Position numbers and translations under genes: made by a program
Shown: positions 25,213 to 45,299 of the stretch, piece by piece
Layout: the number at the start of each line of letters is the position of its first letter
How positions within the stretch are numbered: the first letter of the stretch is position 1
DNA from: a virus
Strand: one strand, 5' to 3'
Virus record (IMG/VR): IMGVR_UViG_3300027804_000049
Span: 32,001-96,000 of that record
DNA: 64,000 nucleotides
The notes under the pieces: model-generated
What the model was told of the DNA's origin: nothing
What the model saw: only the letters and a program-made list of their open reading frames with translations
The model's database searches: none

Positions 25213-28200
25213 TTAGTCCCAGTACTCTAGATCCATTACGTTTTCAAGTGCCTTGTATTCGTTGGTGCCTTTAGTTGTAAGAGATTTTAAGCGCGCAGTC
25301 ATAGCGTCCTTAAAGGCATCATAAGTTCCCCACTTTTCAATGATCTTATCCATTTCAAAACCTTTAGGTTGATATAAGGGGTTATTAAGATTTCTTACAA
25401 TCTTGTCTGTTTCATTCTTATAAATCTTTATCATACCTTCTTGCCCAATGCGACGTAGCATCACTGGAATGTGCTCAAGGTACACATCTGCTTCTTGTAT
25501 TGTTCCACCTTGGAAATATTCCTCTATAGAAGTAGTGTCTTTCTTAAGCTCACCAACTGTGTTATCAACTGGGAATATGCGAAGCTTATTGGTTACTTGA
25601 TCAAATGCTACCATCCAGTTTCCATCATGTCTATCTTGGTTGTTTCCAAGCATATCAAGTATTGACATTCTAATTAAGTCTTCCGGTGCATCAAGAGAAG
25701 TTACAAACGTAACTGGATTAGAAACGTTTACATCTTCACCTCTTGCGTTTTTTACTCCCTTACGAAACGCTGTTGATGCGTTGACTGCTTCATTTACTAA
25801 TGGAATCACAGATCCTGCACGGCTCATCACAACCATGTTGCGGTCATTTCTTCCTACTCGCACATCGTGGATACCTTGCATCCCTGCTGCCTTTAGTAGT
25901 ATTGATGCCTCAAGCTCAGTTACTCCTGCATCTGTGTCTGAAAAATTAGAAACAAAGTTATCATTTTTCACGTAAAAGACTTGCCCGCTTGCGATATGTG
26001 TTACTTCAAATGTAGCATTTACTCCAGACTCGACACCACTGAGCTGGCGAGCGCTAAATCCAGAGTCTTTTAGCTTTGTGCCACTGCCGCCTACGTCATC
26101 AAAAAAGTCTTGTACTCTCAGTTGAGAAAGCACCTCTGCAGAGTTAAACGGATCTGAGTATCCATGGTCAGCTATGTATTCGTTCGTAAGACCTTCACGT
26201 AAGCGAAAAACATCATCTAATGGCATACTTCTGTCTTTGTCTAAAATCTGTTGACTTATATAGTCATTAAGAGCATTTTTTGCACTTGGAGACAAAGTAG
26301 CAAGTGATCTATTGTTTCTTATAACGTCGCGTATTTGGCTGTAGTAAGGGGAAACTTGTGGGCTATTTCTAAAGGCGTCTGACTCAATTACAGCAATGCC
26401 ATCTGAGGAAACATTGGGTATGTTTTGCTTAGACTTAACACGTTTTTCAGCATTTCCTATTTGACTATTGTTTGCTGCTTGAACTTGTTCTTTAGCAGTA
26501 GGCTCTAGGTTTTTAGTTCCGTTCCAGCTTTCACTTATCAGTACTCTTTTACCTAGCCAGTCATTAGCGCCTGGACGCCAACCTACGCGTGCAAATTCCA
26601 TAGGAGTTGGCACCCTAGACATATCATATTCACCATTTGGCAATTTAGCTGCTTTAAGTTTTTCAACTAAAATTTCAACGTCACTTTCTTCTTCTTTATT
26701 TCTTACTTGTCTTCTAAAGTCTGACATGTTTATAATTTCTGCACTATTTTTCCAGTTAAATCCACTTAGTGCCCAGACAAATCCGCCTTGGTATTCTCTT
26801 CCACCTGCAGCGTAGACTTCTACTTTTTTAATCCCGTTTGCAATGTACCAATTTTCTGTGTAACGATTAAACGCAGTTGCAAATCCTGTCTTTTTACGAC
26901 CAACTCTGAGATACTGATTTTTAGCGTATGAGTCTGCTATTACAACGTTTCCATTTTCATCTACCTTTTTCTTTACTACCAGGTAGCGCTGTATCTCACC
27001 TACGGCTGTACCAGACACATCTCTTACTACCATACTTGTATTTATTGTGTAATCAAATCTTCCATTTGCTATCTCTTCTTCAGTAGCTCCTGAAAGTGGC
27101 GTAACATTAGTACTTAAATTGTTAATTGATAATGAAAATAATTCTCCGCCAAATGTGACACCTTCGCGAACTCCGTATATGTCGCCAACTATCTCTGTTA
27201 GACGATCTTTTGCCTCACGAGATGCAGCAGCGTCACCTTCATTAAGTATACGTGAAAAAGTGGAGACTTGTTCTTCCAAACTTTTTAGTGATATGCGCTC
27301 ATTAGCAGCTTTTGCAATTTCTGCATCCCGTGAGCCCCAGGCTGAAAAATCAGATTGAACTGCATCTTTATTTGTGCGGTCTTTGATGTAGTCAGGAATG
27401 GTGCTATCATCATTAACTCCAGCAGTCTCGCCTGAGCGAGCTATGCGCGGAGGCGCTGCTACAGGCGCATCAAGGCGTTCTTGAACATCTCTTGCAGACG
27501 GCTGTGATTCTGCTTCTACTACTGTAGGAGCTTTTCCACTTGCATCTGAAATTGCAAGCACCTTTGACGCAGAACGCACCGCGGTGCTTCCATCATCAAA
27601 TCTAATACGTAAGTACTCTGGATCGTTTTGTACTGCTACAACAGTTCCAACTTGTCCGTCCTTTAATGCTTTAACGCGCGCGCCTTTACCAACCACAGCA
27701 CCATCGCGATCTCTAGTGGTGTTGTTTGGAGAGTACCCTGGTTCTTTAGGTCCTGGGTACACGTACTGTGGAGCTGCAGGAGCTGCAGGAGCTGCAGGAG
27801 CTTCAGGTTCAGGAGTTGCAGGAGTTTCTTCTTCTTTTTCTTCCGCATCAACGTTTGTTTGATAGATGCTTTCACGCTCTTGAGGAGTAAGATCTCTCCA
27901 GCCAGCTTGGCCAGCTCCTCTTGGATCTGAGAACCAGTCTTGTGAAACTGTAAGCTTTGTAATCGAACCATCGCGTGCAATATAAAGGTCTTCCCATGGA
28001 TCAACGTATGCAAGTGATCCGTCAGAAGGTAGATACGAAATTACGTTAATTCCGCTTGGAAATAAGTCGTTTCCAATGTCATAAAAATCTTTTATTGCAT
28101 CAATGTTATCATTAAACATATTTGCTACTTGAGGTGACTCAGGTACTTGAGCTGGCTCGGGTGCTTCTTCAAAGTCATTTGATTCTCTGCTAATTCGCTC

Positions 28201-30402
28201 TAATACATCATTTGTATTGATGCCTTGTAATTGAAGTGCGTCACGAATTCCTTCGACTGGAACTTCGTATGTTCCTGTGTCGAGATTATCTGGATTATAG
28301 ATTAAAAATACAGATCCTGATCCGTCTGTAATTGCAATCTCAAATTGCTCAAGCAAATCTGCTGTAATAAACTCTCGCGCGATGTACTCTGGATTGTCAG
28401 AGTATCCATTTTCATCCAAGTCCGCAACGCTTGGCTCATACGGATTAGGATCAATAGCATAGTAGTCAGTGTTACCACCAAAATCATTTGGAATATTGTA
28501 AATTAACTCACCTGGAAGAGGGCTTTGCTCGCCTGCGCTGTCATCTCTCTCTAGAGGGTTTGCTGCCTTTTGCTCTATCTCTTCTGGTGTTGATGATTCC
28601 TTAATTTGAGAGATTTCTTCAAATATGTCATCAATTAACGCTTGTTCATCTGGGTCTGGTTTTCCGCCCGCTGCGTCATGTAACTTGTTTAGGTTGTTGC
28701 GATTCCCATTAACTGCGTCATAAGCATTTGCAATAACGCGATTAGGATCTCCACCTGCTAAAAATATTGCGTTATATAAAGCTTCAGCTGGAACAAATTC
28801 GTCACCTTTATTAAATTCTAGCTGTCCTGCCCCGCTACCATTTGCGCGTCCTGCAGCAGGGGCAGGAGAGTCGACAACATCATCAACTTCTTCAAGTTCT
28901 AGTAACTCACCGTCATCGCCAATGCTTGACTCAATAATTTCGTTAAAAATCGCATCGTCTCTGTCGCCAATTAACGCTTGAGTAAGCGCGACACTGAGTT
29001 GAGGAAGTGTGTACTTCACCGCTAGACGGTCTGGGTCGTCTGTAAAGTCTGTTGATTCTTCGTCAACGCGACCATCAGGCTCAAAGTCAACTGTGCGTAA
29101 TTGAAATGCGCCGCTAGGAACATCAAACTCATTGAAAAGTGCAGGAGCATTAGGTGCGCTAAGATTTTGTGGAATTACAGCTTTAGGCTCTCCATCTTGA
29201 GCTTTAACACTTTCCTTAAACTTGTCATAGTCAGGCGAGTCCTTCTCTGCAAGAGATTGTGCCTCTGCCCATGATTCAACATCTCCAACCTTGTCACCAG
29301 TATTTCCGTCCTTATCAAGACGATGAAGTGCAAAGCCAGACTCATTTGGAATTAGCTTATAATCATCATCAGATGTGAAAGACCCATCGTCCTGTTTTGT
29401 CCATCCTGTAGGCGCATCAACCTTTGTCTTAAGTAGGTCGTCAAGAGTTGGAATATCTTTAGAGGAAGCTTCCTTTGCGGTTGGCTTACGGGTTGATGGC
29501 TCTCTACTTATCTTTTCTCTCTTTAAAGTTTCTTTTGATATACGCGCCTTAACTGGAGTGGCATTAGCGCTTTCAATCGAGTAAATTCCGTCTGGTATCG
29601 TGTTATCTCCACGAACTTCAATATAACCTGCATTAACTATTTCCTTACCTTCAAATATTGAATATCCACTATTAGCATTTATACCAACAAAATTTCCTGC
29701 CGCATTTCCAATATCTCCATTAGGAAGTCTAAAGTTAAAGTTAAGTCCTCGACCCATTTCGACCCAACGTCCATAACGGTCACGCCACTGCAATGCAACA
29801 CGCGCACGACGGGCCACACTTGAGTTTCCACTTGAAAAACCAAATGCAGCTACTAAAGTTTTAATTGGACTATCATCAATCTTAAAGAATGAAGAAACCG
29901 CTCCTGCCAGTGTAACGCGTAAGCGAGCAAATGCGTGGCGACGTTGAATTGATCCTGGCTCAAGCGAGTGAGCGGTTGCAATTAAAGGACGAACTGAGTT
30001 ATCAATAGACGGATCTGACGAAAGCCATTGAGCGTATCTTTCTTGAGCAATATCACTTGATGCAGTTACATTTAATAAGGACCTAGGGTGGCCAATTGGT
30101 AGTAGGTCAATATTAGATGAATACTCGTATGCCTTAAACGTATCTTGATGTGCTGTAATAAACTTTGCAACCTCGCGAAGTACGCCAAGCTCGCGTGACT
30201 TATCTGACAACGATGAAAGACTGGCATTTGCGCGATTCATAACTGTAAGCGCATTGCGAGGAATAACTCGACGCTCAATTGGAGTGTTCTTATTTGCCTC
30301 TGCTACAAGAGATAAAACCTTTTTACGAAGAGATAAAGGTTTATATCCCTTTGGGTAGATTGCCTTACGATCTACCATCTTACTTATTAACTCTTCGTAC
30401 AT
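25213..30402 (-). CDS. Large multidomain head-module protein with SH3-like, GNAT-like acetyltransferase and C-terminal PI3/4-kinase/HipA-like kinase domains
   Basis: GFATAF...E.WY...GIKKVEVYA...GGFVWALSGFNW (GNAT-like); FYVK...ELEAS...DMLGNNQDRHDGNWMV...IFPVDN (kinase catalytic loop DRHxxN). Confidence 0.65.
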   Translation of the reverse strand: MYEELISKMVDRKAIYPKGYKPLSLRKKVLSLVAEANKNTPIERRVIPRNALTVMNRANASLSSLSDKSRELGVLREVAKFITAHQDTFKAYEYSSNIDLLPIGHPRSLLNVTASSDIAQERYAQWLSSDPSIDNSVRPLIATAHSLEPGSIQRRHAFARLRVTLAGAVSSFFKIDDSPIKTLVAAFGFSSGNSSVARRARVALQWRDRYGRWVEMGRGLNFNFRLPNGDIGNAAGNFVGINANSGYSIFEGKEIVNAGYIEVRGDNTIPDGIYSIESANATPVKARISKETLKREKISREPSTRKPTAKEASSKDIPTLDDLLKTKVDAPTGWTKQDDGSFTSDDDYKLIPNESGFALHRLDKDGNTGDKVGDVESWAEAQSLAEKDSPDYDKFKESVKAQDGEPKAVIPQNLSAPNAPALFNEFDVPSGAFQLRTVDFEPDGRVDEESTDFTDDPDRLAVKYTLPQLSVALTQALIGDRDDAIFNEIIESSIGDDGELLELEEVDDVVDSPAPAAGRANGSGAGQLEFNKGDEFVPAEALYNAIFLAGGDPNRVIANAYDAVNGNRNNLNKLHDAAGGKPDPDEQALIDDIFEEISQIKESSTPEEIEQKAANPLERDDSAGEQSPLPGELIYNIPNDFGGNTDYYAIDPNPYEPSVADLDENGYSDNPEYIAREFITADLLEQFEIAITDGSGSVFLIYNPDNLDTGTYEVPVEGIRDALQLQGINTNDVLERISRESNDFEEAPEPAQVPESPQVANMFNDNIDAIKDFYDIGNDLFPSGINVISYLPSDGSLAYVDPWEDLYIARDGSITKLTVSQDWFSDPRGAGQAGWRDLTPQERESIYQTNVDAEEKEEETPATPEPEAPAAPAAPAAPQYVYPGPKEPGYSPNNTTRDRDGAVVGKGARVKALKDGQVGTVVAVQNDPEYLRIRFDDGSTAVRSASKVLAISDASGKAPTVVEAESQPSARDVQERLDAPVAAPPRIARSGETAGVNDDSTIPDYIKDRTNKDAVQSDFSAWGSRDAEIAKAANERISLKSLEEQVSTFSRILNEGDAAASREAKDRLTEIVGDIYGVREGVTFGGELFSLSINNLSTNVTPLSGATEEEIANGRFDYTINTSMVVRDVSGTAVGEIQRYLVVKKKVDENGNVVIADSYAKNQYLRVGRKKTGFATAFNRYTENWYIANGIKKVEVYAAGGREYQGGFVWALSGFNWKNSAEIINMSDFRRQVRNKEEESDVEILVEKLKAAKLPNGEYDMSRVPTPMEFARVGWRPGANDWLGKRVLISESWNGTKNLEPTAKEQVQAANNSQIGNAEKRVKSKQNIPNVSSDGIAVIESDAFRNSPQVSPYYSQIRDVIRNNRSLATLSPSAKNALNDYISQQILDKDRSMPLDDVFRLREGLTNEYIADHGYSDPFNSAEVLSQLRVQDFFDDVGGSGTKLKDSGFSARQLSGVESGVNATFEVTHIASGQVFYVKNDNFVSNFSDTDAGVTELEASILLKAAGMQGIHDVRVGRNDRNMVVMSRAGSVIPLVNEAVNASTAFRKGVKNARGEDVNVSNPVTFVTSLDAPEDLIRMSILDMLGNNQDRHDGNWMVAFDQVTNKLRIFPVDNTVGELKKDTTSIEEYFQGGTIQEADVYLEHIPVMLRRIGQEGMIKIYKNETDKIVRNLNNPLYQPKGFEMDKIIEKWGTYDAFKDAMTARLKSLTTKGTNEYKALENVMDLEYWD

Positions 30403-31811
30403 TAGCTATATTTTTTCTTTGGAAGCAGATCTGCATCTTGCGAGTCATAAAGATCTGTTGCAAGTTCATATGCTCTACTAAATGGAACGTCTCCGTCACG
30501 AACACCGCGTAGCCATGCACCGCGCAACGCAGGAATTATCTCGTAGCCAAGACCGGAGTACTCTGCCATCGAGTAAATTGCATGCTCTGGAGAACCGTAT
30601 TCATCAAGTGACTTTAATGCAACCTGCATAAGCTCATGCTGCATCATTGAAGCCTCTGCCCTTGAGGACTTTGGATGTGCCTTTGGTAAAAGATCATTGT
30701 CCTGCTTGTAATTTGGATTTGCAGGAGACCCTGAGCGTAAAAGTTTTAGAAACGCGTTAACGCGAGCCATGGCCCAGCCGTCGCGAGTCATGCCTGGTCT
30801 ATGGCTAGATGAAAATGCGCCTGACCCTCTGCGATACACTGCCTTTAACATTGGTAACGTTGCCTTACGTCCTGGCTTTGCGTTCTTGTTGTGCTCTACT
30901 ATCTTTTTACGAAGTGAATTTTCTGTTTTTTGTGAGAATACAATTTTCTTTCCACCTGAGGCTGATCCCTTTGGATTTTTCTTTGATCCGTAGATGCGGT
31001 CTTTTTTAGGAGCGCGGCGCGATGCTGCAAGTGAGCTGTCCGCTGCATCAACAGGAACACAGTTTGGAACCATGTTTCCGTTCTTGCCCTTCTTCATTCC
31101 GACTTGCTTGTATCCGTCCCAACAAGGGCTCTTTCCAGCTGCAATTAAGGCGTTGTACTCTTCGTATGAGCTTAGATCATCAAATGCCTCATTAAAGGCA
31201 TCAACGCTTGCCGTATCTTTACTGCCTGCGGTAACAACTCCGTCAGGAATCAACGCGAAGCGGCAGTAGCCTTCTGGCTCAACCTCGGCGGCAATAATCT
31301 TACACTCGCTGCCGCCAACATATAAAATACAGTTGGCGCACTTAACGCCAATCTCCTTGTTTTCATTATTAGCGGCAGATTCATATCCTGCCCAAACACC
31401 TGTGTCATCAGAGTTAAACTTTCCATATTTTTGAGTAATTTCAATAAGCGCGTCGGCAAGATCTTGCTCCTCAGGAACAACAATTCCTGCAGCTAATAAA
31501 GCGTCCTCCTGCTCAATCTTAAATGTTTCATACATCTCGTCGCGAGCGTGATCGTCGTAGTCTTCGCTATACACGTTTATCGACTTCATACGCATTGGAC
31601 ACATACATGTAATTGGGCAAGGGCATTGACCTGACGGACAATTTTCGCATGAACAGTCGTTTTCATCGCAGTAAAGGCAGTCATCAACAGCTGCCTGTTC
31701 GTCCATATCAGACGAGTCTTCATTTATCTTTGAATAAAGATCTGCCATACGTAGCAAAAGCTCAGCTGCTTCTTGCTTGGTGTTATCGTCATGCATTTGG
31801 AGGTACCTCAT
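30402..31811 (-). CDS. Modular head-module protein with a metallothionein-like Cys tract, a HiPIP-like domain and further small modules
   Basis: CLYCDENDCSCENCPSGQCPCPITCMC; CANCILY...C...GYCRF; PCWDGYKQVGMK...PNCVP; LKAVYRRGSGAF...WAMARVNAFL. Confidence 0.6.
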   Translation of the reverse strand: MRYLQMHDDNTKQEAAELLLRMADLYSKINEDSSDMDEQAAVDDCLYCDENDCSCENCPSGQCPCPITCMCPMRMKSINVYSEDYDDHARDEMYETFKIEQEDALLAAGIVVPEEQDLADALIEITQKYGKFNSDDTGVWAGYESAANNENKEIGVKCANCILYVGGSECKIIAAEVEPEGYCRFALIPDGVVTAGSKDTASVDAFNEAFDDLSSYEEYNALIAAGKSPCWDGYKQVGMKKGKNGNMVPNCVPVDAADSSLAASRRAPKKDRIYGSKKNPKGSASGGKKIVFSQKTENSLRKKIVEHNKNAKPGRKATLPMLKAVYRRGSGAFSSSHRPGMTRDGWAMARVNAFLKLLRSGSPANPNYKQDNDLLPKAHPKSSRAEASMMQHELMQVALKSLDEYGSPEHAIYSMAEYSGLGYEIIPALRGAWLRGVRDGDVPFSRAYELATDLYDSQDADLLPKKKYS

Positions 31812-33480
31812 TTGGGGGAGTTGCTTGCTCTGGTGTTGCTGGTGTTGCTGGTGTTTGTTGTGCTGCCTGCTCTAAGATTTGTTCAATCTCTGGTGGAACT
31901 GGCGCTATGGATTGTGCCTGTTGAACTTCGCGAAGCTTATTCATAAGTTCAGGTGATACTGCACTTATCATCTGCTCGGTAAGCTCTGGTGATATTGAAC
32001 CCTTTTCTATCAAAAGACGAAGTGCTAGTTCCTTTGACTCTGGAGCATCAGAGCTTGCAAAACCGTGAGCGCGTCTCCAGGCATCAAATGAAACTGCCAT
32101 GCGATCAAACCCGGAGTCTGCGTCTGCAGCTCTATCATTACGTGTTGCAACTTGAGATGGGTCATACCAGAGACAGACGCGCTTAACGTCTTCCTCTCTA
32201 AAACCTGCAGAGATGAGCGCGGGACGAAGATACATAACTGTCAACGCGTCAACAATGATAAGCATCATTGGCTCAATGTGCGCCTTATATAGTGCCTCAT
32301 CAATTTGTAAGGCATTGGAGTATTTAACGTTGGCTAAACCTGTAACAACATCCTTTGGCACGTCTAGACCTTGAAGGATACGCTCTAACACACGGTCAGC
32401 GCGTTGCGCAAGTGATGGGTCAAACGATCTTTCAAACTTAAACTGCTTGATTCTGTCACCAAGCTCTGCAGGACCGCGAATGATAAGAGGAACAACTGCG
32501 GATGCAGAATCCTCGTCACGAATTGGAGTAGTCATTGCATCAATGAGTTGATCTTCAAACTCGTCAGCTGCCTCCTCGGCAGTCATGCCAGGACTTAACT
32601 CGTTCTCATCATCATAAGGATAATCTGGGTCTGGACTTGCTGCAACTGAAAGTCCATCTGGCAAATAAAGAGCGCCAGCGTTAAGTCGTGAGCGTGCGGT
32701 TGCTCTAAAGGTACGATTTAGAAGTAGAAGCTCTGCGCAAAGATCGAGTAGACCGCGCATGCTCGAATCTGCTTCCTCGGAGTAACGTGGGTGAGCTCTC
32801 CAAATGCGTCCAACAAAACTTGTATTTGGAAGCTTTAATGCGGCAGCTGCGTTTTTGCCGCCTGATGTAACAACGTCACGACGTGGAATTATTAGATATT
32901 GATTACGTGCATCAACTTGAAGCTCGTCTGTTGAGCGAATATCCCAGCTTTCAGGAACACCCGTTCCTTTACGTGCAGGGAATTGAACAAGATAGCACTC
33001 ACCTGAAACCGATAGGTTTAGGGCTGCATCTCGTAATAGTCCAGCCTGTCCGCCGTATGCAGAGTCTAATCGCGCTAACGCGCGCTCTGCAGCAGCAGCT
33101 AATCTCTGATCAACAACATCACTGTTGTTTACAGGGACAGGCGACTCCGCGGGATTATCAACCGCGGCTGCATAAAGACGAATACGTGAAACAACTGATG
33201 CAACAAGGTTAAATGCATACTTAACTTCGCCAATGGCGTCATAGTACTCCCAGGCTTCACTCTGCCAATCAGAGGATCCGCCTGTTCTACGTTGCTTAAA
33301 TCTTTCAACCTCGCCCTTATCATTTATGGCGATTTGTACTGCCGCTGCAGTTATAGGTCGCGGAGCAGAGTATGGTAATGATTGCGCGTATGACATATCA
33401 GAAATGACAACGGGAGTTGTTACATTACGTTGTGGTCTTTGATTACGAGGAGGAAATTCCTCGCGACGAAAAATTGCCAC
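31789..33480 (-). CDS. Portal protein
   Basis: WQSEAWEYYDAIGEV, NLSVSGECYL, RIWRAHPR...ADS and SASAVVPLII motifs of actinophage portals; position after terminase. Confidence 0.85.
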   Translation of the reverse strand: MAIFRREEFPPRNQRPQRNVTTPVVISDMSYAQSLPYSAPRPITAAAVQIAINDKGEVERFKQRRTGGSSDWQSEAWEYYDAIGEVKYAFNLVASVVSRIRLYAAAVDNPAESPVPVNNSDVVDQRLAAAAERALARLDSAYGGQAGLLRDAALNLSVSGECYLVQFPARKGTGVPESWDIRSTDELQVDARNQYLIIPRRDVVTSGGKNAAAALKLPNTSFVGRIWRAHPRYSEEADSSMRGLLDLCAELLLLNRTFRATARSRLNAGALYLPDGLSVAASPDPDYPYDDENELSPGMTAEEAADEFEDQLIDAMTTPIRDEDSASAVVPLIIRGPAELGDRIKQFKFERSFDPSLAQRADRVLERILQGLDVPKDVVTGLANVKYSNALQIDEALYKAHIEPMMLIIVDALTVMYLRPALISAGFREEDVKRVCLWYDPSQVATRNDRAADADSGFDRMAVSFDAWRRAHGFASSDAPESKELALRLLIEKGSISPELTEQMISAVSPELMNKLREVQQAQSIAPVPPEIEQILEQAAQQTPATPATPEQATPPNEVPPNA

Positions 33481-33521
33481 TTATAAAACTCCTGTCATTA
33501 AGATAACGGAACGCATTAACA

Positions 33522-33833
33522 TTACCTGTCAAGTCGTGCGGTTATTAAGCCTGCTAGCGCAGACAGGGCAAATATACACCCTATTAGGAATACCGTACTT
33601 GGAAAAAACGCGTAAAAAACCATAGTTGGAAGTGCGATCCAAAGGGATATACACCACTCACAGGTAAACAGGTATCCGATTGAGCTTGAGTGCGCAGGTT
33701 TCTTACTAAAGACCCAGTCACGCACGGGTTCGAATATTGTGTCAATTATTACCAGGCGCGTTAGGCGATAAACCAAGAGCGCAAGCACGACGAAGTGAAG
33801 GGCTGACATATTTTCTATTTCATATAGGTTCAT
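33522..33833 (-). CDS. Membrane protein (DUF1360-like)
   Basis: YRLTRLV..DTIF.P.R and LFTCEWCISLW motifs; hydrophobic helices. Confidence 0.65.
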   Translation of the reverse strand: MNLYEIENMSALHFVVLALLVYRLTRLVIIDTIFEPVRDWVFSKKPAHSSSIGYLFTCEWCISLWIALPTMVFYAFFPSTVFLIGCIFALSALAGLITARLDR

Positions 33834-34213
33834 GATGTTGGGTCCTTTATTGAGTCCATTGTTTTATAAGGGCTAAATGACCGTAGGCGACTGCCACAGG
33901 TACATCCTTGCACGTGCTTAAATGCAACTATCTTCCCAGATACGGTAAGCGCCTGGGAGTCAAGTTTTTTATCTCCGGACCAGTTTAGATCCGCGAGTCG
34001 TTCTGAGAATATAAGGCGAGGTCCTCCTGAGGCGTCTGCCGCAACAACAAGGACCATGCTTGAATCATCCTGCATAACTATCGTTCTTACTCTCTCAAGA
34101 TAGCGGCCTCCGTTTGGAACCTTACTTGAGGTTGTTGCTTCCTTAAAATCTTCCATTACGTTTGCGGGGATTGCAACTATCGTGGATGGAAAGAAGTCAT
34201 GGATAATCTTCAT
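33830..34213 (-). CDS. Hypothetical protein
   Basis: 127 aa with C-terminal GCTCGSRLRSF; ATGA overlaps with neighbours. Confidence 0.55.
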   Translation of the reverse strand: MKIIHDFFPSTIVAIPANVMEDFKEATTSSKVPNGGRYLERVRTIVMQDDSSMVLVVAADASGGPRLIFSERLADLNWSGDKKLDSQALTVSGKIVAFKHVQGCTCGSRLRSFSPYKTMDSIKDPTS

Positions 34214-34698
34214 ACTGTAAGCGCCCGATCTACTCTACGTTTCATTGCTCGATAGGTAACGCCTGAGACGCGGGCGAGCTCTGAGACCGTGACTCCCTTT
34301 AGGTATAGGTTCTTGGCGAGACTTGAAAGTTCGTGATTGGCATTAAATGAGGCTGAGGCTGGTGACGTGCGGGAACGATAACGTCTTGCCAGCGGTGATA
34401 ATCTTGCGATGCGTAACTGCTCATCAATTGGGATTCCTGGACTCTTAGGACGAATACGTCTTATACGTGGCGCCTTAAGAGGCACGTGGGGAATAGGTGA
34501 GATTGAGGTTTGATTCTTTACGTTGCGAACTGCCCAGGAACGTATAGTTGATCGCGTCTTTATGGGAGTAAAGGCATTTGCAATTGATTGATATGACCAG
34601 CCTACTGCAACAAGCTCTTGAACTCTAAAACACAAGGCGTCCTTTGTAAGTGTTATGAGCAGATCTCTCTCGCTTTTAGGCAGTAGCGGTGCGGCCAT
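34210..34698 (-). CDS. Double helix-turn-helix DNA-binding protein
   Basis: GWSYQSIANA and GVTVSELARVSGVTYRAMKRRV; resembles 43397..44056. Confidence 0.65.
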   Translation of the reverse strand: MAAPLLPKSERDLLITLTKDALCFRVQELVAVGWSYQSIANAFTPIKTRSTIRSWAVRNVKNQTSISPIPHVPLKAPRIRRIRPKSPGIPIDEQLRIARLSPLARRYRSRTSPASASFNANHELSSLAKNLYLKGVTVSELARVSGVTYRAMKRRVDRALTV

Positions 34699-34756
34699 GG
34701 AGTTACCTTAACACGCGCTCGTCAAAGCGTGTACAAACTGCTCGGTGTTTTGTACT

Positions 34757-36163
34757 TTATCGTACACGAAACCCACCTTTTCCTCCGCGAAAGGAAGGAA
34801 GCTTTCTTGAGGCAAGAGACTTTGCAGTTATATGTCCGCCAAGGAATCCTGCAGGAGGCTTAATAAGAAGCGCGGTTAATGCGTGAACAAGTGCATCAAC
34901 TCGATCTGGAGATCTTGATGTTTCACCAGGGATCCAGGTTGTCATCTGACTCTCAAGCTCTGGAAGATAGTTAATATGGTGAACACGATTTTGCTCGTAG
35001 GCAAGAGTCACTGGCTCTGCACGTAGTGCCTTGCCATACTTTGAGTGAACCTCTAATACCTTTACGTTTGGGTCAATGGTATTTATTGCATTACGAACTA
35101 AGGCGCCACCTTGATTTACTTCCGCTACAACGGGGCAACCCCACTTGCGTGCCATTTGCACAACCTTGTTTGCCCAAACATCAGGAGATCCGTGAACTGT
35201 TGCGTCCTCAAGGATCCAGGAGTTACGCTTGTATAAATCGCGCTCGCCTGTTGATGCGCAAACAACAATTCCGCACTCATCGCGCGGATTCTCTGCAACC
35301 GATGGGTCAACGCCAATTACGCGTAGTGGAGCTCCAATTGGAAGTTGCGTCTCACGACCGCGATCTATAAGTTCAATTGTCCAAAGAGCTCCTTCAATAT
35401 CTGAAAGCATCTCTCCGTAGAGTTCCTGTTGCGCAAGACGTGTTCCTTCATATACACCCATAATTGCACTTATATATGACTCAGATAGGTTTCCACGGTT
35501 ATCCATGGTTGAGCCTTTGGTAACGATTACCTTGTCTGGCTGCTTCTTACTTTCATTTATAAGTTGATATAGAAGTGGAACGCGCTTAGGTGTCGTCGTG
35601 ATTAAGATCTTTGGCTTTAACCCAAGACGTGTACCAACGCGTAAGTTATCAAACGCAGTCATACCTGCCGCGTCGGGAGTTTGACGCCAGGCGGCAACCT
35701 CATCACCCCAGGCATGCGTGAATTGAGGACCGCGAAGCGAGTCAGGCTCGTCTGCTGTGAAGAGCGTTGCGGTGTTTCCATTAGGCCAAGTAAGACGACG
35801 CTTTGAAGGTTCGTAGTGCGGGCGCTCGCTTGGTGGCGTGATATTTATGATTCCTGATTCGCCTTCTACGATAACGTCACGAACGTCTGCGGCGGTACGC
35901 GCAACGAGCGCGAAGCGAAGTTGTCCTTTATTCGTATACCTTGCCTGCTCTCTTACCCACTCTGCTGCAAGGCGCGTCTTACCAAAACCGCGACCTGCAA
36001 GTACAAGCCAGATGTTCCAGTCATCACCTACGGGAGACTGCTGCTCAGGACGACCCCAAAACGACCAGTCCCAAGGAAGGGTCTCTTGATCAAGTCCACT
36101 TAATATCGCATCACGTTCCTCCTCGGAAAGTATTGCGATCTGCTCGGCTATGCTTTTGCCCAT
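34757..36163 (-). CDS. terL: Terminase large subunit
   Basis: Walker A AGRGFGKT, Walker B WGDE, TTTP coupling motif, RNase H-like GVDP and SPDRVDA; probable leaderless ATG at 36163. Confidence 0.95.
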   Translation of the reverse strand: MGKSIAEQIAILSEEERDAILSGLDQETLPWDWSFWGRPEQQSPVGDDWNIWLVLAGRGFGKTRLAAEWVREQARYTNKGQLRFALVARTAADVRDVIVEGESGIINITPPSERPHYEPSKRRLTWPNGNTATLFTADEPDSLRGPQFTHAWGDEVAAWRQTPDAAGMTAFDNLRVGTRLGLKPKILITTTPKRVPLLYQLINESKKQPDKVIVTKGSTMDNRGNLSESYISAIMGVYEGTRLAQQELYGEMLSDIEGALWTIELIDRGRETQLPIGAPLRVIGVDPSVAENPRDECGIVVCASTGERDLYKRNSWILEDATVHGSPDVWANKVVQMARKWGCPVVAEVNQGGALVRNAINTIDPNVKVLEVHSKYGKALRAEPVTLAYEQNRVHHINYLPELESQMTTWIPGETSRSPDRVDALVHALTALLIKPPAGFLGGHITAKSLASRKLPSFRGGKGGFRVR

Positions 36164-36428
36164 GTACAAATAGTACAATAAGATGCGCTTATTGATTTGT
36201 GTACAAAAACGCAGATTCAGTACCTTAAGGTTAAGTGCCTTGGACGTGAGAAAGCGCCCTGCATTACGGGAGCGCTTTGCGAAAACGTCTCCAACATTTT
36301 TTACAATTTTTCATATTTTTCTGTTTTCTGTCAAGAGCATAAGGCATTGCCTCTACAAAAAATTGTTTTGTAGATTGTTCCAAAGGTATAGTTGCTTGCT
36401 TATTAGTTGCTTTGTCTTAGAAATACTT

Positions 36429-36459
36429 CAGGCTAGCACCTTTGTAAGATGCTAGCCTG
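36429..36459 (-). terminator. Intrinsic terminator-like hairpin
   Basis: CAGGCTAGCA/TGCTAGCCTG 10-bp stem after 36477..36992. Confidence 0.6.
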
Positions 36460-36476
36460 TGACTAGTAGATGTATG

Positions 36477-36992
36477 TTAGTTCAAGTTAATCTCTACGTT
36501 GTTGTCACCTTCAAACAACTTGGTGAATGTGTCAGCGTCAACGTTGCCAGTTGCATTAAGTCCTTTGTCAACCTGGAACTTAGTGACTGCTAGTTTTGTA
36601 AGATCACCTAGCCAGCCATCACGATCTGCGTACGCTTCGTTGTAGCCAAGCTCAACAAGGCGACGTTGTACGTGATGAACGGTTAAGCTCTTACGTGCAA
36701 ACTTGTTCTTGTAGACACAGTTGCTGAGAAACACTGAGTCCTTTTCACCAGAGGAAACAACGTGGTGTGAACTTGCCTTAGGCTTATTAACCTTTGGCTG
36801 TTCAACAACTTCTACCGCAACCGCAGGTTCAGGTTCAGGTTCAGGTTCAGGTTCAGGTTCAGGAACTACAACTACAACAGGTTCAGGTTCAGGTTCAGGT
36901 ACTACTTCTACTGAAGTTGGTTCTACCTCAACAGGAGCTGGTGCCGCAGCATCAACTTCTAGCTCAGTAGGTTGAATGTTTTCTTCGCTCAT
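36477..36992 (-). CDS. Peptidoglycan-binding domain protein with a (PE)n linker
   Basis: VQRRLVELGY...DGWLGDLTKLAVTKFQ...GLNATGNVD (PG_binding_1 pattern); (GGTTCA)n repeats at about 36826-36900. Confidence 0.75.
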   Translation of the reverse strand: MSEENIQPTELEVDAAAPAPVEVEPTSVEVVPEPEPEPVVVVVPEPEPEPEPEPEPAVAVEVVEQPKVNKPKASSHHVVSSGEKDSVFLSNCVYKNKFARKSLTVHHVQRRLVELGYNEAYADRDGWLGDLTKLAVTKFQVDKGLNATGNVDADTFTKLFEGDNNVEINLN

Positions 36993-37018
36993 GGATTTAA
37001 TATAATCCTATCTCGTGA

Positions 37019-37582
37019 TTATGACTTAGGGAACAGCGGCAGCCACTTGGTTATTGAAGGCTCCTCCGCACTACCGTCATAGGCATTTGGTCCTAGTCCC
37101 CATGAGCCCCAGTCAGTTCCACCTTTTGTCATGTGGAATGTAACCTTTGCATTAGTTACTGGGTCAAACAGGTCTGTGTTAGCCGCAAGGTTAAACTTCT
37201 CACGACGATCTACACCAAGGCTTCCAATCATGTTGACCTGGAATATGCCGTATGAATTGTCGCCTGTTCTCACATTGTCATTGTGAGCTATAGGTCGACC
37301 ATTACTCTCCCGCATGGCAACTGCCCATGCTAGCTTTAGGGCTTGGCCCTTGAAGCCTACCGCACGAAGTAGCTCTATAAGCTCGTCCTGCGTTAGCTTC
37401 CTTACGCCCTCTAATCTTTCAAGAGGGTTTCCCTTTACAAGCTCGTACTTATGAGCTGGTATTGGTGTTTGTGCGTATTGTACCGTCGCATTTGATGACA
37501 AGGCTGTCACCGCAAAGATACCGATTGTTAGTGCTGTTATATAGGCTACGGACGTCATTGCTAGTCCACGTAAAGTGAGCAA
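37019..37582 (-). CDS. Secreted/membrane-anchored lysozyme-like transglycosylase
   Basis: N-terminal hydrophobic segment; AVAMRESNG (catalytic Glu), SYGIFQVN, NAKV...W.SW; AAGGAGG RBS. Confidence 0.8.
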   Translation of the reverse strand: MLTLRGLAMTSVAYITALTIGIFAVTALSSNATVQYAQTPIPAHKYELVKGNPLERLEGVRKLTQDELIELLRAVGFKGQALKLAWAVAMRESNGRPIAHNDNVRTGDNSYGIFQVNMIGSLGVDRREKFNLAANTDLFDPVTNAKVTFHMTKGGTDWGSWGLGPNAYDGSAEEPSITKWLPLFPKS

Positions 37583-37594
37583 CGCTAGTTCGCC

Positions 37595-37765
37595 TCCTTC
37601 TTAGGTTAGGGATGGGATAACTCAATGCAGCCACCGCATTAAGCTTCTTGCTACCCTGCAGCTTCTCAGATTTGTGTCTGTCCTCTACCACTTGCACAGG
37701 GTTGGAGATATTAAGGTGCGTTAATAAAATAAACGTGCCTCCGTCTCTCCGTATTGAACTTACTG
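37595..37765 (-). promoter_or_regulatory. Long structured 5' leader of the transglycosylase gene (candidate cis-regulatory RNA)
   Basis: About 180 nt non-coding with stems GGAGA/TCTCC, ACCCTG/CAGGGT, CAGA/TCTG and AGCTTAATGCGG/CTGCATTGAGTT. Confidence 0.45.
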
Positions 37766-37813
37766 GTAAACTATACCATAATGAAAGTAAAACTTGACCC
37801 AAAGTAGGCAGTT

Positions 37814-38104
37814 TTACTTATTTTTCTTCTTGGCCTTTTCTTCCTCTGCCTTTAGCATTTGAGCTTCAATTTTAAGAAGAAGAGGAGTAAATAGCCTCGC
37901 TAGGGATTCAACATCACCTTGGACTTTTGCCTCATTCCGTTTCATGCGGCGAACACCTTTTTGTGCCGCGGTAATGAGTGGGCTGTCATGTACTACACCG
38001 TATAGTGGCACTATGACCACCTCCTCTCGTTCTGATGGGTTAATTATATCATCAGAAGGGGGGTCTTGTAAACCCCCCTCGAGAGGAGGCTGGTACCAAC
38101 TCAT
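37814..38104 (-). CDS. Hypothetical protein
   Basis: 96-aa ORF in the gene-dense minus-strand block. Confidence 0.5.
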   Translation of the reverse strand: MSWYQPPLEGGLQDPPSDDIINPSEREEVVIVPLYGVVHDSPLITAAQKGVRRMKRNEAKVQGDVESLARLFTPLLLKIEAQMLKAEEEKAKKKNK

Positions 38105-38117
38105 AGGTAAACCTACC

Positions 38118-38270
38118 TTAGTCCCTTTGAGACAGGCAGGCCATTGCGACCGAGGTTAACCCTAGGGCTAGGACCAACGTGCCTTTAGAAGGGTCCAGAA
38201 GGGCGATAAGAACCGCTAGAATAGAGCTGGCGGCTGATACCACGGCTGGCCACACAATGTTACGTAACAC
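38118..38270 (-). CDS. Small two-TM membrane protein (50 aa)
   Basis: Manual translation MLRNIVWPAVVSAASSILAVLIALLDPSKGTLVLALGLTSVAMACLSQRD. Confidence 0.5.
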   Translation of the reverse strand: MLRNIVWPAVVSAASSILAVLIALLDPSKGTLVLALGLTSVAMACLSQRD

Positions 38271-38282
38271 GGGGTCTAGACC

Positions 38283-38462
38283 TTACTTGCTCTTTCGGGT
38301 CTTACCCTTAAGGCGATCTGAGGTGTTACGGATTGGTGTGCCTGAGTCTGAGATGAGCTTACGAGCCTTGCCGTATGTAATGCCAAGCTCCTGGGCTACC
38401 TCAACTACGGACTTGCCAGCTGTATAAAGTGCAGCTGCCTGTTGTGATGACGCTGTTGTCAT
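38283..38462 (-). CDS. Small helix-turn-helix protein
   Basis: LYTAGKSVVEVAQELGITYGKARKLI...GTPIR; AAAGGA RBS before ATG 38462 (the ORF track starts further upstream at 38576). Confidence 0.7.
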   Translation of the reverse strand: MTTASSQQAAALYTAGKSVVEVAQELGITYGKARKLISDSGTPIRNTSDRLKGKTRKSK

Positions 38463-38572
38463 TTGTTTTCCTTTTCTCGTTTTTTCCTGTTTATTTTTAT
38501 TACCTTCGAGTGATAGTAATAAGACTCGCGACCGATCGATCAGATCGCGTGCCTCGTTGAGCAGACTACTGC

Positions 38573-39025
38573 TCAAGATTTATTTTTCTTTTCCGGTTTT
38601 GGAGGAACCTTCCCATGCTTGTTGCATAGCATCTTTCCTCCCCATGCGCTACGAGGTTTGACGTTTAGATCACAGTCAGTTCCATATCCTGCCGCATAGC
38701 AACGAACTCTGTCCTTGACAAGAATTGAATTGTTAATGGCAGCAATTGCGCGTTTGACAACTGAGTTGCTAATGGCAAATCCATTAGCCTCATGACAGGT
38801 CCAACACAGGTATTCATTTCTTCGATGTGCTGGATCTCTAAGTGCATTAGGTGCACCGCAGTTATCACAGTGTTGAATGTTCTTTCGAGTAAATACGATG
38901 TTTCGATAATCTGATGCACAAATCAACTTGTCATCAAGTTCATAGACGAGTACGTTTGTGTCACCGCACAAGGAACAGGTGTCATAAACATAGATCTGTT
39001 CTCGTTGAACAGTACCTCTTGTCAT
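38573..39025 (-). CDS. Multi-zinc-finger protein
   Basis: CSLC, CDNC, CWTC and C...C...CNKH motifs; GGAGG RBS. Confidence 0.6.
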   Translation of the reverse strand: MTRGTVQREQIYVYDTCSLCGDTNVLVYELDDKLICASDYRNIVFTRKNIQHCDNCGAPNALRDPAHRRNEYLCWTCHEANGFAISNSVVKRAIAAINNSILVKDRVRCYAAGYGTDCDLNVKPRSAWGGKMLCNKHGKVPPKPEKKNKS

Positions 39026-39082
39026 TGATCCTCCGTAATCGTCCTTAGGAAAAACTATAATCCTTTTTCCTACGTTTGTAAA

Positions 39083-39358
39083 CTATTGAATCGGGTGAAC
39101 TACGCCAAGGAGCGTTTGGTTCGCGGCAGATGCCTTGTTGAACTCTTTTTCCGCCATGTGGTCATAGGTTGCCGCGATAAGAATAGCAGGAAGACAGAAG
39201 GCTATTAGCCCAGTCATTGATGCAAGGAAGTGAATCCAAGATCCACCTACCGCAAGCACTACCATCGCAATTGCCCATAATCCTGACATTACCTTAAGTG
39301 AGAACGAGATACGACGGAATTGAAATCCGCGTCTACGAAGTTCCTTTGCTGTTTTCAT
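39083..39358 (-). CDS. Two-TM membrane protein
   Basis: Two hydrophobic helices; AAGGAG RBS. Confidence 0.6.
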   Translation of the reverse strand: MKTAKELRRRGFQFRRISFSLKVMSGLWAIAMVVLAVGGSWIHFLASMTGLIAFCLPAILIAATYDHMAEKEFNKASAANQTLLGVVHPIQ

Positions 39359-39368
39359 TTTTATCTCC

Positions 39369-39530
39369 TTAGTTTAGAGTTGCGATTCCAATAATTGTGC
39401 AAAGAACAACTGCAAGAAGTGCAGGCCATGGGCCGCTTGCTAGATTCTCATCTGCCGAGTCTTTAATGTTACCTAAAAAATCTGAAACTTCATCCATGCA
39501 ATTACCGAAGAAATCTGATACTGAGTTCAT
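39369..39530 (-). CDS. Small membrane protein (53 aa) with an internal VSDF(F/L)GN repeat
   Basis: Manual translation; promoter motif at 39561 and GAAAGGGG RBS. Confidence 0.55.
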   Translation of the reverse strand: MNSVSDFFGNCMDEVSDFLGNIKDSADENLASGPWPALLAVVLCTIIGIATLN

Positions 39531-39610
39531 TTTGAGCCCCTTTCGTGAGCTTGTCGTTGGTACTATTATATCAGGAAGATCCCGGATATTGGCTATATCC
39601 GACTAATATT

Positions 39611-39679
39611 TTAGAATTTACAGCCAGGACAATCAGAGCGTAGGCAGTCACCGCATATTACTTTATTGTCTTTTTCCAT
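39611..39679 (-). CDS. 22-aa Cys4 microprotein
   Basis: MEKDNKVICGDCLRSDCPGCKF; own promoter (39703) and GAAAGGGA RBS. Confidence 0.55.
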   Translation of the reverse strand: MEKDNKVICGDCLRSDCPGCKF

Positions 39680-39726
39680 TTTAGTCCCTTTCCTGAGCTT
39701 GGTACTATTATATCAGGTAGGTCAGG

Positions 39727-39853
39727 AAAATAAAGGAAGCCAGGTGGGAATGGGACCACCTGGCTCCTTGGAAAGGGTGTCTACAACTTGAACGAATTGG
39801 AGGTACGTCCAAGGAGACCCTTGGCATAAGGTATGAACGGACCTTTGCCAAGT
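39727..39853 (-). ncRNA. Putative three-hairpin small RNA with C-rich loops
   Basis: TGATATAAT promoter at 39860-39868; hairpins CTTGGCA/TGCCAAG and CTTGGACG/CGTTCAAG; terminator AGCCAGGTGG/CCACCTGGCT followed by TTTATTTT; no ORF. Confidence 0.6.
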
Positions 39854-39865
39854 AGGATAATTATA

Positions 39866-40798
39866 TCATACCCACGAGAATAAACGAACCTCTTCATAGA
39901 CCGTACCTACAACCTCGCTCCAAATTTGCGGTGTGTGGTCAAAAGGTTGATACCCACCAGCTCCTCCGATGAGGACTCGGCCTTGAGCATATGTGTTGGC
40001 AATTTGACCTACGACCTTAGCCGCATACTTGTATCCAGGGTAATCGAAGTTAAGGGTTGACAACGGATCTGAAATGTGAGCATCAGCTCCAGTAGCCAAC
40101 AACACAACATCTGGTTGGATCTTGTGTGATAGCTCAGCAACTTGATCTACCGCATCGCGAAATGCATCATCACCGGAGCCTGGATCTAACGCCCAGTTAT
40201 AAATACCGAACGAAGGCTTATGTCCATCAAGACCTGTACCTGGAAAAATCACAGAGTCGTGAATCGAGCATGTAACAATATCTCTTGAGCTGGCAAGTAG
40301 ATTCTCAACGCCATCACCATGATGCGCATCCCAGTCGATATACATAACCTTCATGCCATTACGATGAAATTCCTTTGCAGCCCAAGCCATGTCGTTAAAC
40401 ACGCAAAATCCTGAGCTGTGATTACGTTGAGCATGGTGCTTAGCTCCCTGAGGATTAAAGCCAACCTTTAAGTCACCCGCAAGCATTTTTTCTGTAAGAC
40501 GAACTGTTCCGGCAAACATGTGTAATGCGACCTTACCCTTGTGGGTATCGTCTGGTCTCCATTCACCGCAATGCCCAAGGTCAAGAACCTTTGAAACATA
40601 TTCCTTATCGTGAATGGACTCTACGTGAGCTCTATCCGTATCAAGGATGTCTGGTTTTATAATGACGACGTCGTGGTTTTCCTGCAACATCTGTGTTGCA
40701 TACTTTGCACGAACCGGATTTGTTGGATGCTCGAAATCTGAGCTACCAAGTTTCCAATCAAGATACACATCGTCGTATGAGATATGTAGCTTAGTCAT
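39866..40798 (-). CDS. Histone deacetylase/AcuC-family Zn-dependent deacetylase
   Basis: HPTNPVR, GAKHHA, GFCVFND, IDWDAHHGDGVE, SIH...FPGTG, GADAH..DPL, GGAGGY. Confidence 0.92.
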   Translation of the reverse strand: MTKLHISYDDVYLDWKLGSSDFEHPTNPVRAKYATQMLQENHDVVIIKPDILDTDRAHVESIHDKEYVSKVLDLGHCGEWRPDDTHKGKVALHMFAGTVRLTEKMLAGDLKVGFNPQGAKHHAQRNHSSGFCVFNDMAWAAKEFHRNGMKVMYIDWDAHHGDGVENLLASSRDIVTCSIHDSVIFPGTGLDGHKPSFGIYNWALDPGSGDDAFRDAVDQVAELSHKIQPDVVLLATGADAHISDPLSTLNFDYPGYKYAAKVVGQIANTYAQGRVLIGGAGGYQPFDHTPQIWSEVVGTVYEEVRLFSWV

Positions 40799-41309
40799 TT
40801 AACTTCAACTCCCTTAGATATTTCTCAAAGCTTTGATTTATCAAGACAGCGCTTGAACGCTTTGTCCGCATTAGCTCAATAGCTTGCTCAGCTGTATAGC
40901 CTTCAAGCATGAGAACAATTCCCATAGTTAAGCCAGATCTATTGATTCCAGCTTGACATCTAACAAGAACATTCTTGCCAGACTTCCACTGTTCGTGTGC
41001 ATATTTAGCCGCACGCATTAGTGTAGCCTCATCAAAGCTGGAGTTGTCATCGTAAAATCCGTAACGAACTTCCTCGACAAACCAGTCAACTGGTCGTGCC
41101 CATGCATAGAGCGTGACGACTACCTCGAAATCGTTTTTTGTTATTGCACGAGGACCTAATGTGTTGGCCTCGTAATCAATCGTGTCAAAATCATCTGTTC
41201 CACCAAGCCAAAGCCCTGAAAGGATCTCGCTCCATAGAGGAAAGTTCCAGTCAATTTCGTGCTGCGGTGCAGCACCAAGTTCCTCTGTACTGTAAGTTGC
41301 CATTGTCAT
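40791..41309 (-). CDS. Dual-specificity/tyrosine protein phosphatase
   Basis: VLVRCQAGINRS (CX5R), SEILSGLWLGG; true start ATG 41309 after GAAAGGA, because the ORF-track extension runs through the tRNA. Confidence 0.88.
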   Translation of the reverse strand: MTMATYSTEELGAAPQHEIDWNFPLWSEILSGLWLGGTDDFDTIDYEANTLGPRAITKNDFEVVVTLYAWARPVDWFVEEVRYGFYDDNSSFDEATLMRAAKYAHEQWKSGKNVLVRCQAGINRSGLTMGIVLMLEGYTAEQAIELMRTKRSSAVLINQSFEKYLRELKLND

Positions 41310-41381
41310 GCGTCCTTTCGAATCGGTGGGACAGGGTCCCCATAGGTCTATTATATCAGGTTTGTAAACAACTCTAAAACA

Positions 41382-41457
41382 TGGAGCGGACGACGGGGGT
41401 CGAACCCGCGACCTGAACCTTGGCAAGGTTCCGCGCTACCAACTGCGCTACGTCCGC
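41382..41457 (-). tRNA. tRNA-Gly (GCC) with encoded CCA
   Basis: GCGGACGTAGCGCAGTTGGTAGCGCGGAACCTTGCCAAGGTTCAGGTCGCGGGTTCGACCCCCGTCGTCCGCTCCA; full cloverleaf, U73 discriminator. Confidence 0.96.
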
Positions 41458-42020
41458 TAGAACTTCTGGGACTTTATAACGATAGGTTCAGCTGAGTAAA
41501 TATCCCACTTGATTGCAGCAGCTATCGCTTTTTTAATATTCTCTTCTGCTTGTTTCAGTGTCTTTGCTGGACCTAGAATCTCTAGAGCTCCAAGCACAAC
41601 GTCTCCTCCTGAACCACCGTAATAAACATTACGAACATCTCTGTCCCAAGAGTAGTCTTCGAAAATCGGATATATGACACCACGCACTGCAACTAAAAAC
41701 ATTGAGTCATGAGCTGCCGCATCTCCGTCCTCCTTCATGTCATAACCAGCTTCAATAAAAGCTCGCCGCATCTCTGGAACAAACTTTTTAGTCATAAAGG
41801 AATCTAAGTTTTCTGCGCTGTTCGGTGGTTTTGGTGGAGTCCAGCCAAACTGAAGAATGTTAGATCCACGACTTGCACCAGCTCCAGCAATTAGGTATGG
41901 TCCGTTTTCGATGACCTTATGAGTTGCCATAGTTGTGTATCGACCTGACTCTTCAGAAGCTCTAGAGTCGCATCCAATAACACACCAACCATTGCCTTGA
42001 ATCGCGGCAAGCGTAGTCAT
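41457..42020 (-). CDS. Proteasome-beta/HslV-like Ntn-hydrolase protease
   Basis: N-terminal MTT nucleophile, GCDSR...K, GGSGG, A..WDIYS pattern. Confidence 0.8.
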   Translation of the reverse strand: MTTLAAIQGNGWCVIGCDSRASEESGRYTTMATHKVIENGPYLIAGAGASRGSNILQFGWTPPKPPNSAENLDSFMTKKFVPEMRRAFIEAGYDMKEDGDAAAHDSMFLVAVRGVIYPIFEDYSWDRDVRNVYYGGSGGDVVLGALEILGPAKTLKQAEENIKKAIAAAIKWDIYSAEPIVIKSQKF

Positions 42021-45295: not shown

Positions 45296-45299
45296 GAGA

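Follow-up and report, generated by a model that had tools for sequence, protein, structure and literature searches.

Does a phage carry host-modifying enzymes in its head and also encode the enzymes that undo their work? This question is raised by a 64,000-nt stretch of DNA (the window) that covers bases 32001–96000 of one viral record, IMGVR_UViG_3300027804_000049, which is 114,610 bp long. Within its head module is a giant gene for a protein of 1729 amino acids (aa), in which a GNAT-fold acetyltransferase-like domain and a protein-kinase-like domain (the putative writers) lie in tandem, and elsewhere in the window a two-gene operon encodes a dual-specificity phosphatase (DSP) and an HDAC-family deacetylase (the putative erasers). 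Among informative relatives, the deacetylase occurs exactly where the GNAT domain does, and the phosphatase exactly where the kinase domain does. The nearest named relative is DSL-LC01, a metagenome-assembled freshwater Actinomycetia phage (PMC10611076) with a portal protein 72% identical to that of the window and the same gene order; large Microbacterium phages are more distant named relatives. Judging from these relatives, the host is probably an actinobacterium.

The giant protein and the phosphatase–HDAC operon

In the direction of transcription, the head module consists of TerL, small genes, portal, a 469-aa gene, the 1729-aa gene, a 316-aa gene, a 1541-aa gene, the major capsid protein and the major tail protein. 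An earlier note on this DNA had described the 1729-aa open reading frame (ORF) and placed it between portal and protease. The ORF and its location in the head module were confirmed, but it is not flanked directly by these two genes: the 469-aa and 316-aa genes intervene, and the protease-like PHROG match sits in the 1541-aa gene. From its N terminus onwards, the protein comprises a conserved domain, a site of variable insertion near aa 400–420, a middle domain, a low-complexity linker, a region designated C1, the GNAT domain, a helical linker and the kinase domain (Table 1). Homologues with the full architecture (n = 55) range from 1194 to 2620 aa, with a C-terminal part of about 870 aa. With two effector-type domains, the minimum for the class, in one ORF among structural genes, the protein has the make-up of a polyvalent protein.

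Every relative keeps the N-terminal and middle domains, and it is in the enzyme domains that they differ. The N-terminal domain is present even in relatives that lack both enzyme domains, with 27–49% identity in G001–G006, G019 and G020 and 30% in DSL-LC01; it is possibly the part that is incorporated into the head, although a role as a packaging domain is unsupported, and a search of the ESM Atlas with the N-terminal 400 aa gave no usable match. Some relatives have a longer giant protein (2088–4119 aa) with an added RNase_T exonuclease domain, which is absent from the protein of the window. Uncultured phages encode kinase domains similar in structure to that of the window in proteins whose annotation is head-morphogenesis (MuF) fusion, and a Mycobacterium phage has one in an ADP-ribosyltransferase fusion. 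The position in the head module, the combination of constant N-terminal and middle domains with variable enzyme domains, the RNase_T domains of relatives and the MuF fusions together suggest that the giant protein is virion cargo, packaged and then injected into the host. The RNase_T variants and MuF-fusion kinases fit the virion-delivered polyvalent proteins described previously (PMC5512222).

The added exonuclease is of the RNase_T-type DEDD class in G003 (4119 aa; L106:398-12757 (-); E 1e-16) and in G006 (3136 aa; L108:323-9733 (+); E 3e-14). The variable insert of several homologues gives weak, sub-threshold matches to the Sigma70_r4 helix-turn-helix (P0007, aa 431–457; P0019, aa 428–458; L107 protein, aa 1027–1053), and a separate 219-aa ORF of the window (43397–44056) matches Sigma70_r4 at 24.5 bits, barely above the cut-off.

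By its predicted structure, the first enzyme domain is a divergent GNAT-fold domain and a predicted acyltransferase. A separate model of it has a predicted local distance difference test score (pLDDT) of 90.6. The predicted fold is the alpha/beta one of the GNATs, with its beta4-alpha3-beta5-alpha4 core. GNAT enzymes account for all of the 50 best VIA matches (Z 6.8–7.8, 105–157 residues aligned), and the best Foldseek matches are all GNAT-fold proteins (probability 0.96–1.0), namely RimJ-like, KKT23, GmvT, TacT and AtaT, with Gcn5, Naa60 and p300 also on the list. Motif A reads K1170-K-T-G1173-F-A1175 and, compared with the consensus Q/R-x-x-G-x-G/A, has a lysine in place of the usual R/Q. 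After it come a conserved helix, a strand and then G-G-F-V-W-A-L-x-G-F, which resembles motif B. Across 29 sequences the core is invariant, including G1173 and F1174, and position +5 is mostly A/S/G. The stretch singled out in the earlier note as GNAT-like (26750–26925; aa 1159–1217) proved to be the motif-A core of this domain, the model of which matches GNAT folds only.

The second enzyme domain was examined in an AlphaFold model of aa 1081–1729, built from 31 sequences (mean pLDDT 86.7), where model residues 336–649 give the structural matches and have a bilobal, protein-kinase-like predicted fold. Its VIA neighbours include CotH (Z 12.7, 253 residues aligned, root-mean-square deviation 4.7), PI4KIIalpha (Z 12.3) and HipA (Z 11.0), as well as Fam20C, Vps34, MavQ, actin-fragmin kinase and CtkA, and Foldseek matches it to PI3Kgamma (E 9e-6, probability 1.0). 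The catalytic set, made up of K1479 (beta3 Lys), E1496 (alphaC Glu), the D-x-H-x-x-N loop D1590-R1591-H1592-x-x-N1595 and the metal-binding D1613, is invariant in 25 sequences, including those of a divergent clade only about 25% identical. All of these residues lie within the stretch previously proposed as a kinase (25480–26050; aa 1451–1641), where the loop reads D1590-R-H-D-G-N1595. Structure prediction, the check that had been proposed, returned both folds as predicted and with conserved catalytic residues. Pfam PF00454 (PI3_PI4_kinase) gives a weak match of 15.9 bits (cut-off 27.1) that covers the catalytic loop only (aa 1578–1614), and relatives give the same weak match; a sequence search of the C-terminal 679 aa against the PDB found nothing meaningful.

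The operon had been described as overlapping genes for a CX5R phosphatase and an HDAC-family deacetylase read from one promoter, and this description held in each part: the promoter (41378–41350), an 8-nt overlap between the HDAC start and the phosphatase stop, and a terminator were all found, and both protein families were matched above cut-off with intact active sites. The phosphatase scores 40.6 bits against PF00782 (cut-off 33.5) and matches phrog_10650 (E 4e-18); its PDB relatives are Tk-PTP and DUSP22, and neither the P-loop C118-x5-R124 nor the general-acid D87 varies among 13 sequences. The deacetylase matches PF00850 over its whole length (E 3e-54; 184.6 bits, cut-off 27.9), its closest solved relatives are HDAC6, a bacterial HDAC-like amidohydrolase (HDAH) and a lysine deacylase, and all 10 aligned sequences keep the tandem H121/H122, the zinc ligands D157/H159/D239 and the catalytic Y283. 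The phosphatase is read from the ATG at 41309, preceded by the ribosome-binding site GAAAGGA; a longer ORF with a TTG start (40791–41426) overlaps a tRNA gene. The extended -10 element, TGATATAATAG(T/A)(A/C), occurs in 19 near-identical copies at 38039–52891, 18 of them co-oriented (-), against 1.5 expected by chance. Copies are confined to 38–53 kb and head many small gene cassettes. They presumably represent a host-polymerase promoter class, and presumably an early one, the timing being read from the promoter type alone.

Directly upstream of the phosphatase promoter is a tRNA-Gly(GCC) gene (41382–41457 (-)), the sole tRNA found in 36–60 kb. It is followed upstream by a gene for an HslV/proteasome-like peptidase (41457–42020 (-); phrog_1040, E 6e-20, with a weak Pfam Proteasome match), which is kept immediately upstream of the phosphatase in the three clades (A, B and C) described below.

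Co-inheritance of putative writers and erasers

Relatives were collected from four independent starts (giant protein, HDAC, portal and DSP), and whole records were scored by profile search for four features: GNAT (profile A2), kinase (A4), HDAC (PF00850 and A3) and DSP (PF00782 and A6). Records were counted only where both loci are on the contig, and the uninformative fragments G013, G026–G029, G033 and G034 were left out. For eight relatives fetched completely (G001–G006, DSL-LC01 and G023), unfiltered hmmsearch was run on six-frame ORFs. This left 28 informative genomes. All four features are present in 14 of them (G000–G003, G008–G012, G015, G017–G019 and G032); seven have kinase and DSP only (G004–G006, G014, G016, G030 and G031); six have none (DSL-LC01, which is complete and circular, G023, which is 153.7 kb long with direct terminal repeats, and G021, G022, G024 and G025); and one, Microbacterium phage Magritte, has GNAT and HDAC only. 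The earlier note had suggested checking whether HDAC tracks GNAT and phosphatase tracks kinase; the match is exact in 28/28, with 0/28 discordant. Independent assortment of writers and erasers, like the absence of the two folds, was among the outcomes by which the note said its idea would be refuted; neither was seen. Two apparent exceptions were dismissed. G003 seemed to have a phosphatase without a kinase until a broader profile found the kinase at aa 3863–4094 of its 4130-aa protein (E 4.5e-11), and in G020, which at first showed erasers but no writers, the contig ends within the giant ORF.

In a portal tree of 20 taxa, clade A (all four features) lies in a polytomy with several lineages that have none, including DSL-LC01, and clade C (all four) is the sister of clade B (kinase and DSP only). 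On this tree, GNAT and HDAC must have changed jointly at least two times, and kinase and DSP at least once, counts that hold whatever the root. The surroundings of the operon are kept in clade B, with the HslV-like peptidase, DSP and the same downstream genes, and the HDAC slot holds small ORFs only.

As a background control, 127 non-overlapping ORFs of G000 were profiled across eight genomes. The GNAT pattern (clades A and C only) is shown by 2/127, one of which is the HDAC, and the kinase pattern (A, B and C, not DSL-LC01 or G023) also by 2/127, one of which is the DSP. Since the pairs were predicted from chemistry and not from the patterns, a chance coincidence of both is unlikely, bearing in mind that the event count is small. 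Two further ORFs share these patterns, a 132-aa ORF (45300–45698 (-)) that of GNAT and HDAC, and a 105-aa ORF (42925–43242 (-)) that of kinase and phosphatase. Neither matched a Pfam family, and they may be extra components or hitch-hikers of the early region.

Magritte shows the acetyl pair in a different setting. Its gp17 is a head-module protein of 1991 aa, an isolated segment of which scores 25.5 bits against Pfam GNAT, and its HDAC is 43% identical to that of the window. Profile searches of Magritte found neither kinase nor DSP, its head genes gave no match to the portal, capsid and terminase of the present family (BLASTP, E 1e-5), and tBLASTn with gp17 found no relatives.

Table 1. Positions of the domains, genes and regulatory elements in the window.
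Feature	Position	Strand	Evidence or remarks
Giant head-module (polyvalent) protein, 1729 aa	25213..30402	-	ORF and translation; between portal and major capsid protein
N-terminal conserved domain, aa 1-400	29203..30402	-	found in all clades
GNAT-fold acetyltransferase-like domain, aa 1081-1320	26443..27162	-	model, VIA, Foldseek, conserved core
Atypical protein-kinase-like domain (PI3/4K, HipA, CotH type), aa 1441-1729	25216..26082	-	VIA, Foldseek, invariant residues
Sigma-70-type promoter, extended -10, TTTAGA-17-TGATATAAT	41350..41378	-	
CX5R dual-specificity/tyrosine phosphatase (DSP), 172 aa	40791..41309	-	PF00782
HDAC-family zinc deacetylase, 310 aa	39866..40798	-	PF00850
Intrinsic terminator-like hairpin, end of two-gene operon	39736..39767	-	12-bp stem, 8 GC pairs, T-rich tail
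Large terminase (TerL)	34757-36178	-	
Portal	31789-33480	-	phrog_776, E 2e-107
469-aa gene between portal and 1729-aa gene			DUF5824
Major capsid protein	17503-19500	-	

Explanations of the paired patterns

The reading we prefer, at a probability of roughly one half, is that the writers and erasers are functionally coupled pairs, the writers being borne by the virion and the erasers made early. The 1729-aa polyvalent protein would probably carry two active writers in the virion, a GNAT acyltransferase and an atypical kinase, and deliver them with the DNA. At entry, these would modify host proteins, for takeover or counter-defence. Host RNA polymerase would read the phosphatase–HDAC operon from its strong extended -10 promoter to give two cognate erasers, and these newly made enzymes would limit or reset the modification, allowing phage gene expression to proceed. 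The joint retention or loss of each pair makes it most likely that the targets of the erasers are the marks set by the writers, or the consequences of those marks. The antagonism could be a timed reset, self-protection or the exclusion of superinfecting relatives.

Several points weigh against this reading. Independent events are few, about 2–3 for GNAT/HDAC and 1–2 for kinase/phosphatase. The GNAT domain has no match in Pfam even at E 5, its profile has no meaningful match in the PDB, and its structural Z scores are middling (<8); it is on account of these scores and the lack of recognition by sequence profiles that we call it divergent. In Magritte, the GNAT matches the window GNAT profile weakly (E 9.5e-4, hhalign probability 41%), and hhalign of the profile against the Pfam-GNAT region of gp17 shows no relationship, so that the Magritte domain belongs to a different GNAT subfamily. 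The substrates may not be proteins, since enzymes that phosphorylate lipids or sugars share the kinase fold class, and some members of the HDAC family deacetylate polyamines. Presence of the giant protein in virions, and its ejection, are inferred, and the N-terminal domain matches no family, packaging domain or MuF domain in Pfam or PHROG. Finally, DSP homologues with 30–36% identity occur in five cultured actinophages (NiceHouse, Wildcat, Rey, Yvonnetastic and Bongo), in which a search run without a positive control gave no match to the window-type kinase. By sequence comparison, then, the phosphatase family is not strictly tied to that kinase.

The small number of events on the portal tree and the DSP homologues of phages without a detected kinase are also what would be expected if the four activities had independent functions, with erasers that act on host-made marks (for example, those of kinase- or acetyltransferase-based defence or regulation), unrelated domains in the giant protein, and co-occurrence due to common descent and to loose physical linkage over about 16 kb. 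Local co-inheritance does occur, as the two small neighbouring early ORFs show. We nevertheless regard independence as unlikely: each pattern is rare, yet is shared by exactly the functionally opposite genes; core genes separate the two loci, and their tree does not group clades A and C; and in Magritte the GNAT/HDAC pairing recurs on a backbone unrelated to this family. The co-inheritance evidence serves equally well for erasers that provide immunity or self-protection, against the writers of superinfecting relatives or against the phage's own unpackaged giant protein, instead of a timed reset of takeover. Immunity by an enzymatic eraser has precedents in Tre1–Tri1 and DarT–DarG, but the erasers of the window are in a host-promoter, presumably early, array and not beside the late giant gene, and we consider this version unlikely.

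A role on non-protein substrates unrelated to the giant protein would have the phosphatase act in RNA-end or nucleotide metabolism, and the HDAC-like enzyme deacetylate polyamines or an intermediate of sugar or DNA modification. Polyamine amidohydrolases do belong to the HDAC family, and gene neighbourhoods of distant phosphatases lean the same way. In Mycobacterium phage Rey (L214 229-1950) the gene for an RtcB-like RNA ligase directly precedes that of the DSP homologue, from which it appears that the wider DSP family has other roles, and the homologue of the Rhodococcus phage NiceHouse has a tRNA nucleotidyltransferase gene nearby; these contexts hint at RNA repair for that branch. Such substrates would leave it unexplained that the erasers track the GNAT and kinase domains so strictly, however, and the closest solved relatives of the deacetylase are HDAC6, HDAH and the lysine deacylase, making this quite improbable for the window. 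A long shot is that the kinase/phosphatase arm acts on lipid, with a virion-delivered phosphoinositide kinase transiently marking the host membrane at entry, the early phosphatase erasing the mark, and the acetyl-lysine switch operating independently. It is suggested by the structural neighbours of the kinase, among which are PI4KII, Vps34 and MavQ, a lipid kinase of Legionella, by the phosphoinositide phosphatases among CX5R enzymes, and by the membrane phosphatidylinositol of many Actinobacteria. If true, the capsid would contain a two-channel, self-limiting takeover programme.

Comparison with known systems

Coupled pairs of the kind preferred here would have partial counterparts in several systems. 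T4 Alt and P1 DarB are packaged and injected enzymes that modify the host or DNA. They resemble the putative writers in being carried in the head, delivered with the DNA and active before phage gene expression, features that for the window protein are deduced from its gene context, and they differ in chemistry, which is ADP-ribosylation in one case and methylation/helicase in the other. To our knowledge, neither has a dedicated phage-encoded eraser. Modifiers accompanied by a separately encoded remover of the same mark, co-inherited and sometimes temporally ordered, are found in the Legionella pairs DrrA–SidD and AnkX–Lem3, in the type VI secretion system pair Tre1–Tri1 and in DarT–DarG. These are bacterial, use other chemistries and usually have adjacent genes, whereas in the window the putative writers form part of a late structural protein, some 10–15 kb from the early-type operon that encodes the erasers.

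Polyvalent proteins of phages and conjugative elements include GNATs and kinases among their recurrent domains (Iyer, Burroughs, Anand, de Souza and Aravind 2017; PMC5512222). Like the 1729-aa protein, they are very large multidomain proteins encoded among virion genes, with protein-modifying domains and a content that varies between relatives. Their kinase lacks a C-terminal lobe and is found in phages of Verrucomicrobia and Bacteroidetes, unlike the full bilobal PI3/4K-, HipA- or CotH-like kinase of the window (PMC5512222). The words 'deacetylase' and 'phosphatase' have 0 occurrences each in the text of that study.

An antagonistic phage kinase and phosphatase are known from the kinase-kinase-phosphatase (KKP) module of Pf prophages (PMC11341870). 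The module comprises Ser/Thr kinases and a phosphatase of other families, combined in one regulatory module of a filamentous prophage, and is neither virion-borne nor provided with an acetylation arm. Rac of phiKMV, a GNAT-family protein that inactivates host transcription (PMC7552054), is a precedent for a GNAT in host takeover; Rac is small, early and a protein on its own, and has no deacetylase as its partner. The literature searched contained no description of a phage that pairs a virion GNAT with an early HDAC, and no report of one that encodes dedicated enzymes to undo the action of its own virion enzymes. The comparison points to a variant of the polyvalent virion protein theme, with dedicated early erasers, that is new for phages in the literature searched.

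Real coupling would mean that the takeover of the host by these phages through post-translational modification is deliberately transient, and would make two orthogonal, genetically separable writer/eraser pairs available for study. Natural 'knock-outs' exist in clade B, which is without the acetyl pair, in DSL-like phages, which are without both, and in the cultured phage Magritte, which has the acetyl pair only. The catalogue of virion cargo domains would gain two families, a divergent one of GNATs and one of PI3/4K-, HipA- or CotH-like kinases.

The window has a G+C content of about 45%, and the minus strand carries almost all genes from 1 to about 58 kb. Neither the giant gene nor the phosphatase–HDAC operon matched anything in a phage collection searched at the nucleotide level. 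A second giant head-module protein of 1541 aa (19629–24254 (-)) is encoded next to the major capsid protein and shows 48–69% identity in all clades; its central part gives PHROG matches labelled portal, head maturation protease and virion structural protein.

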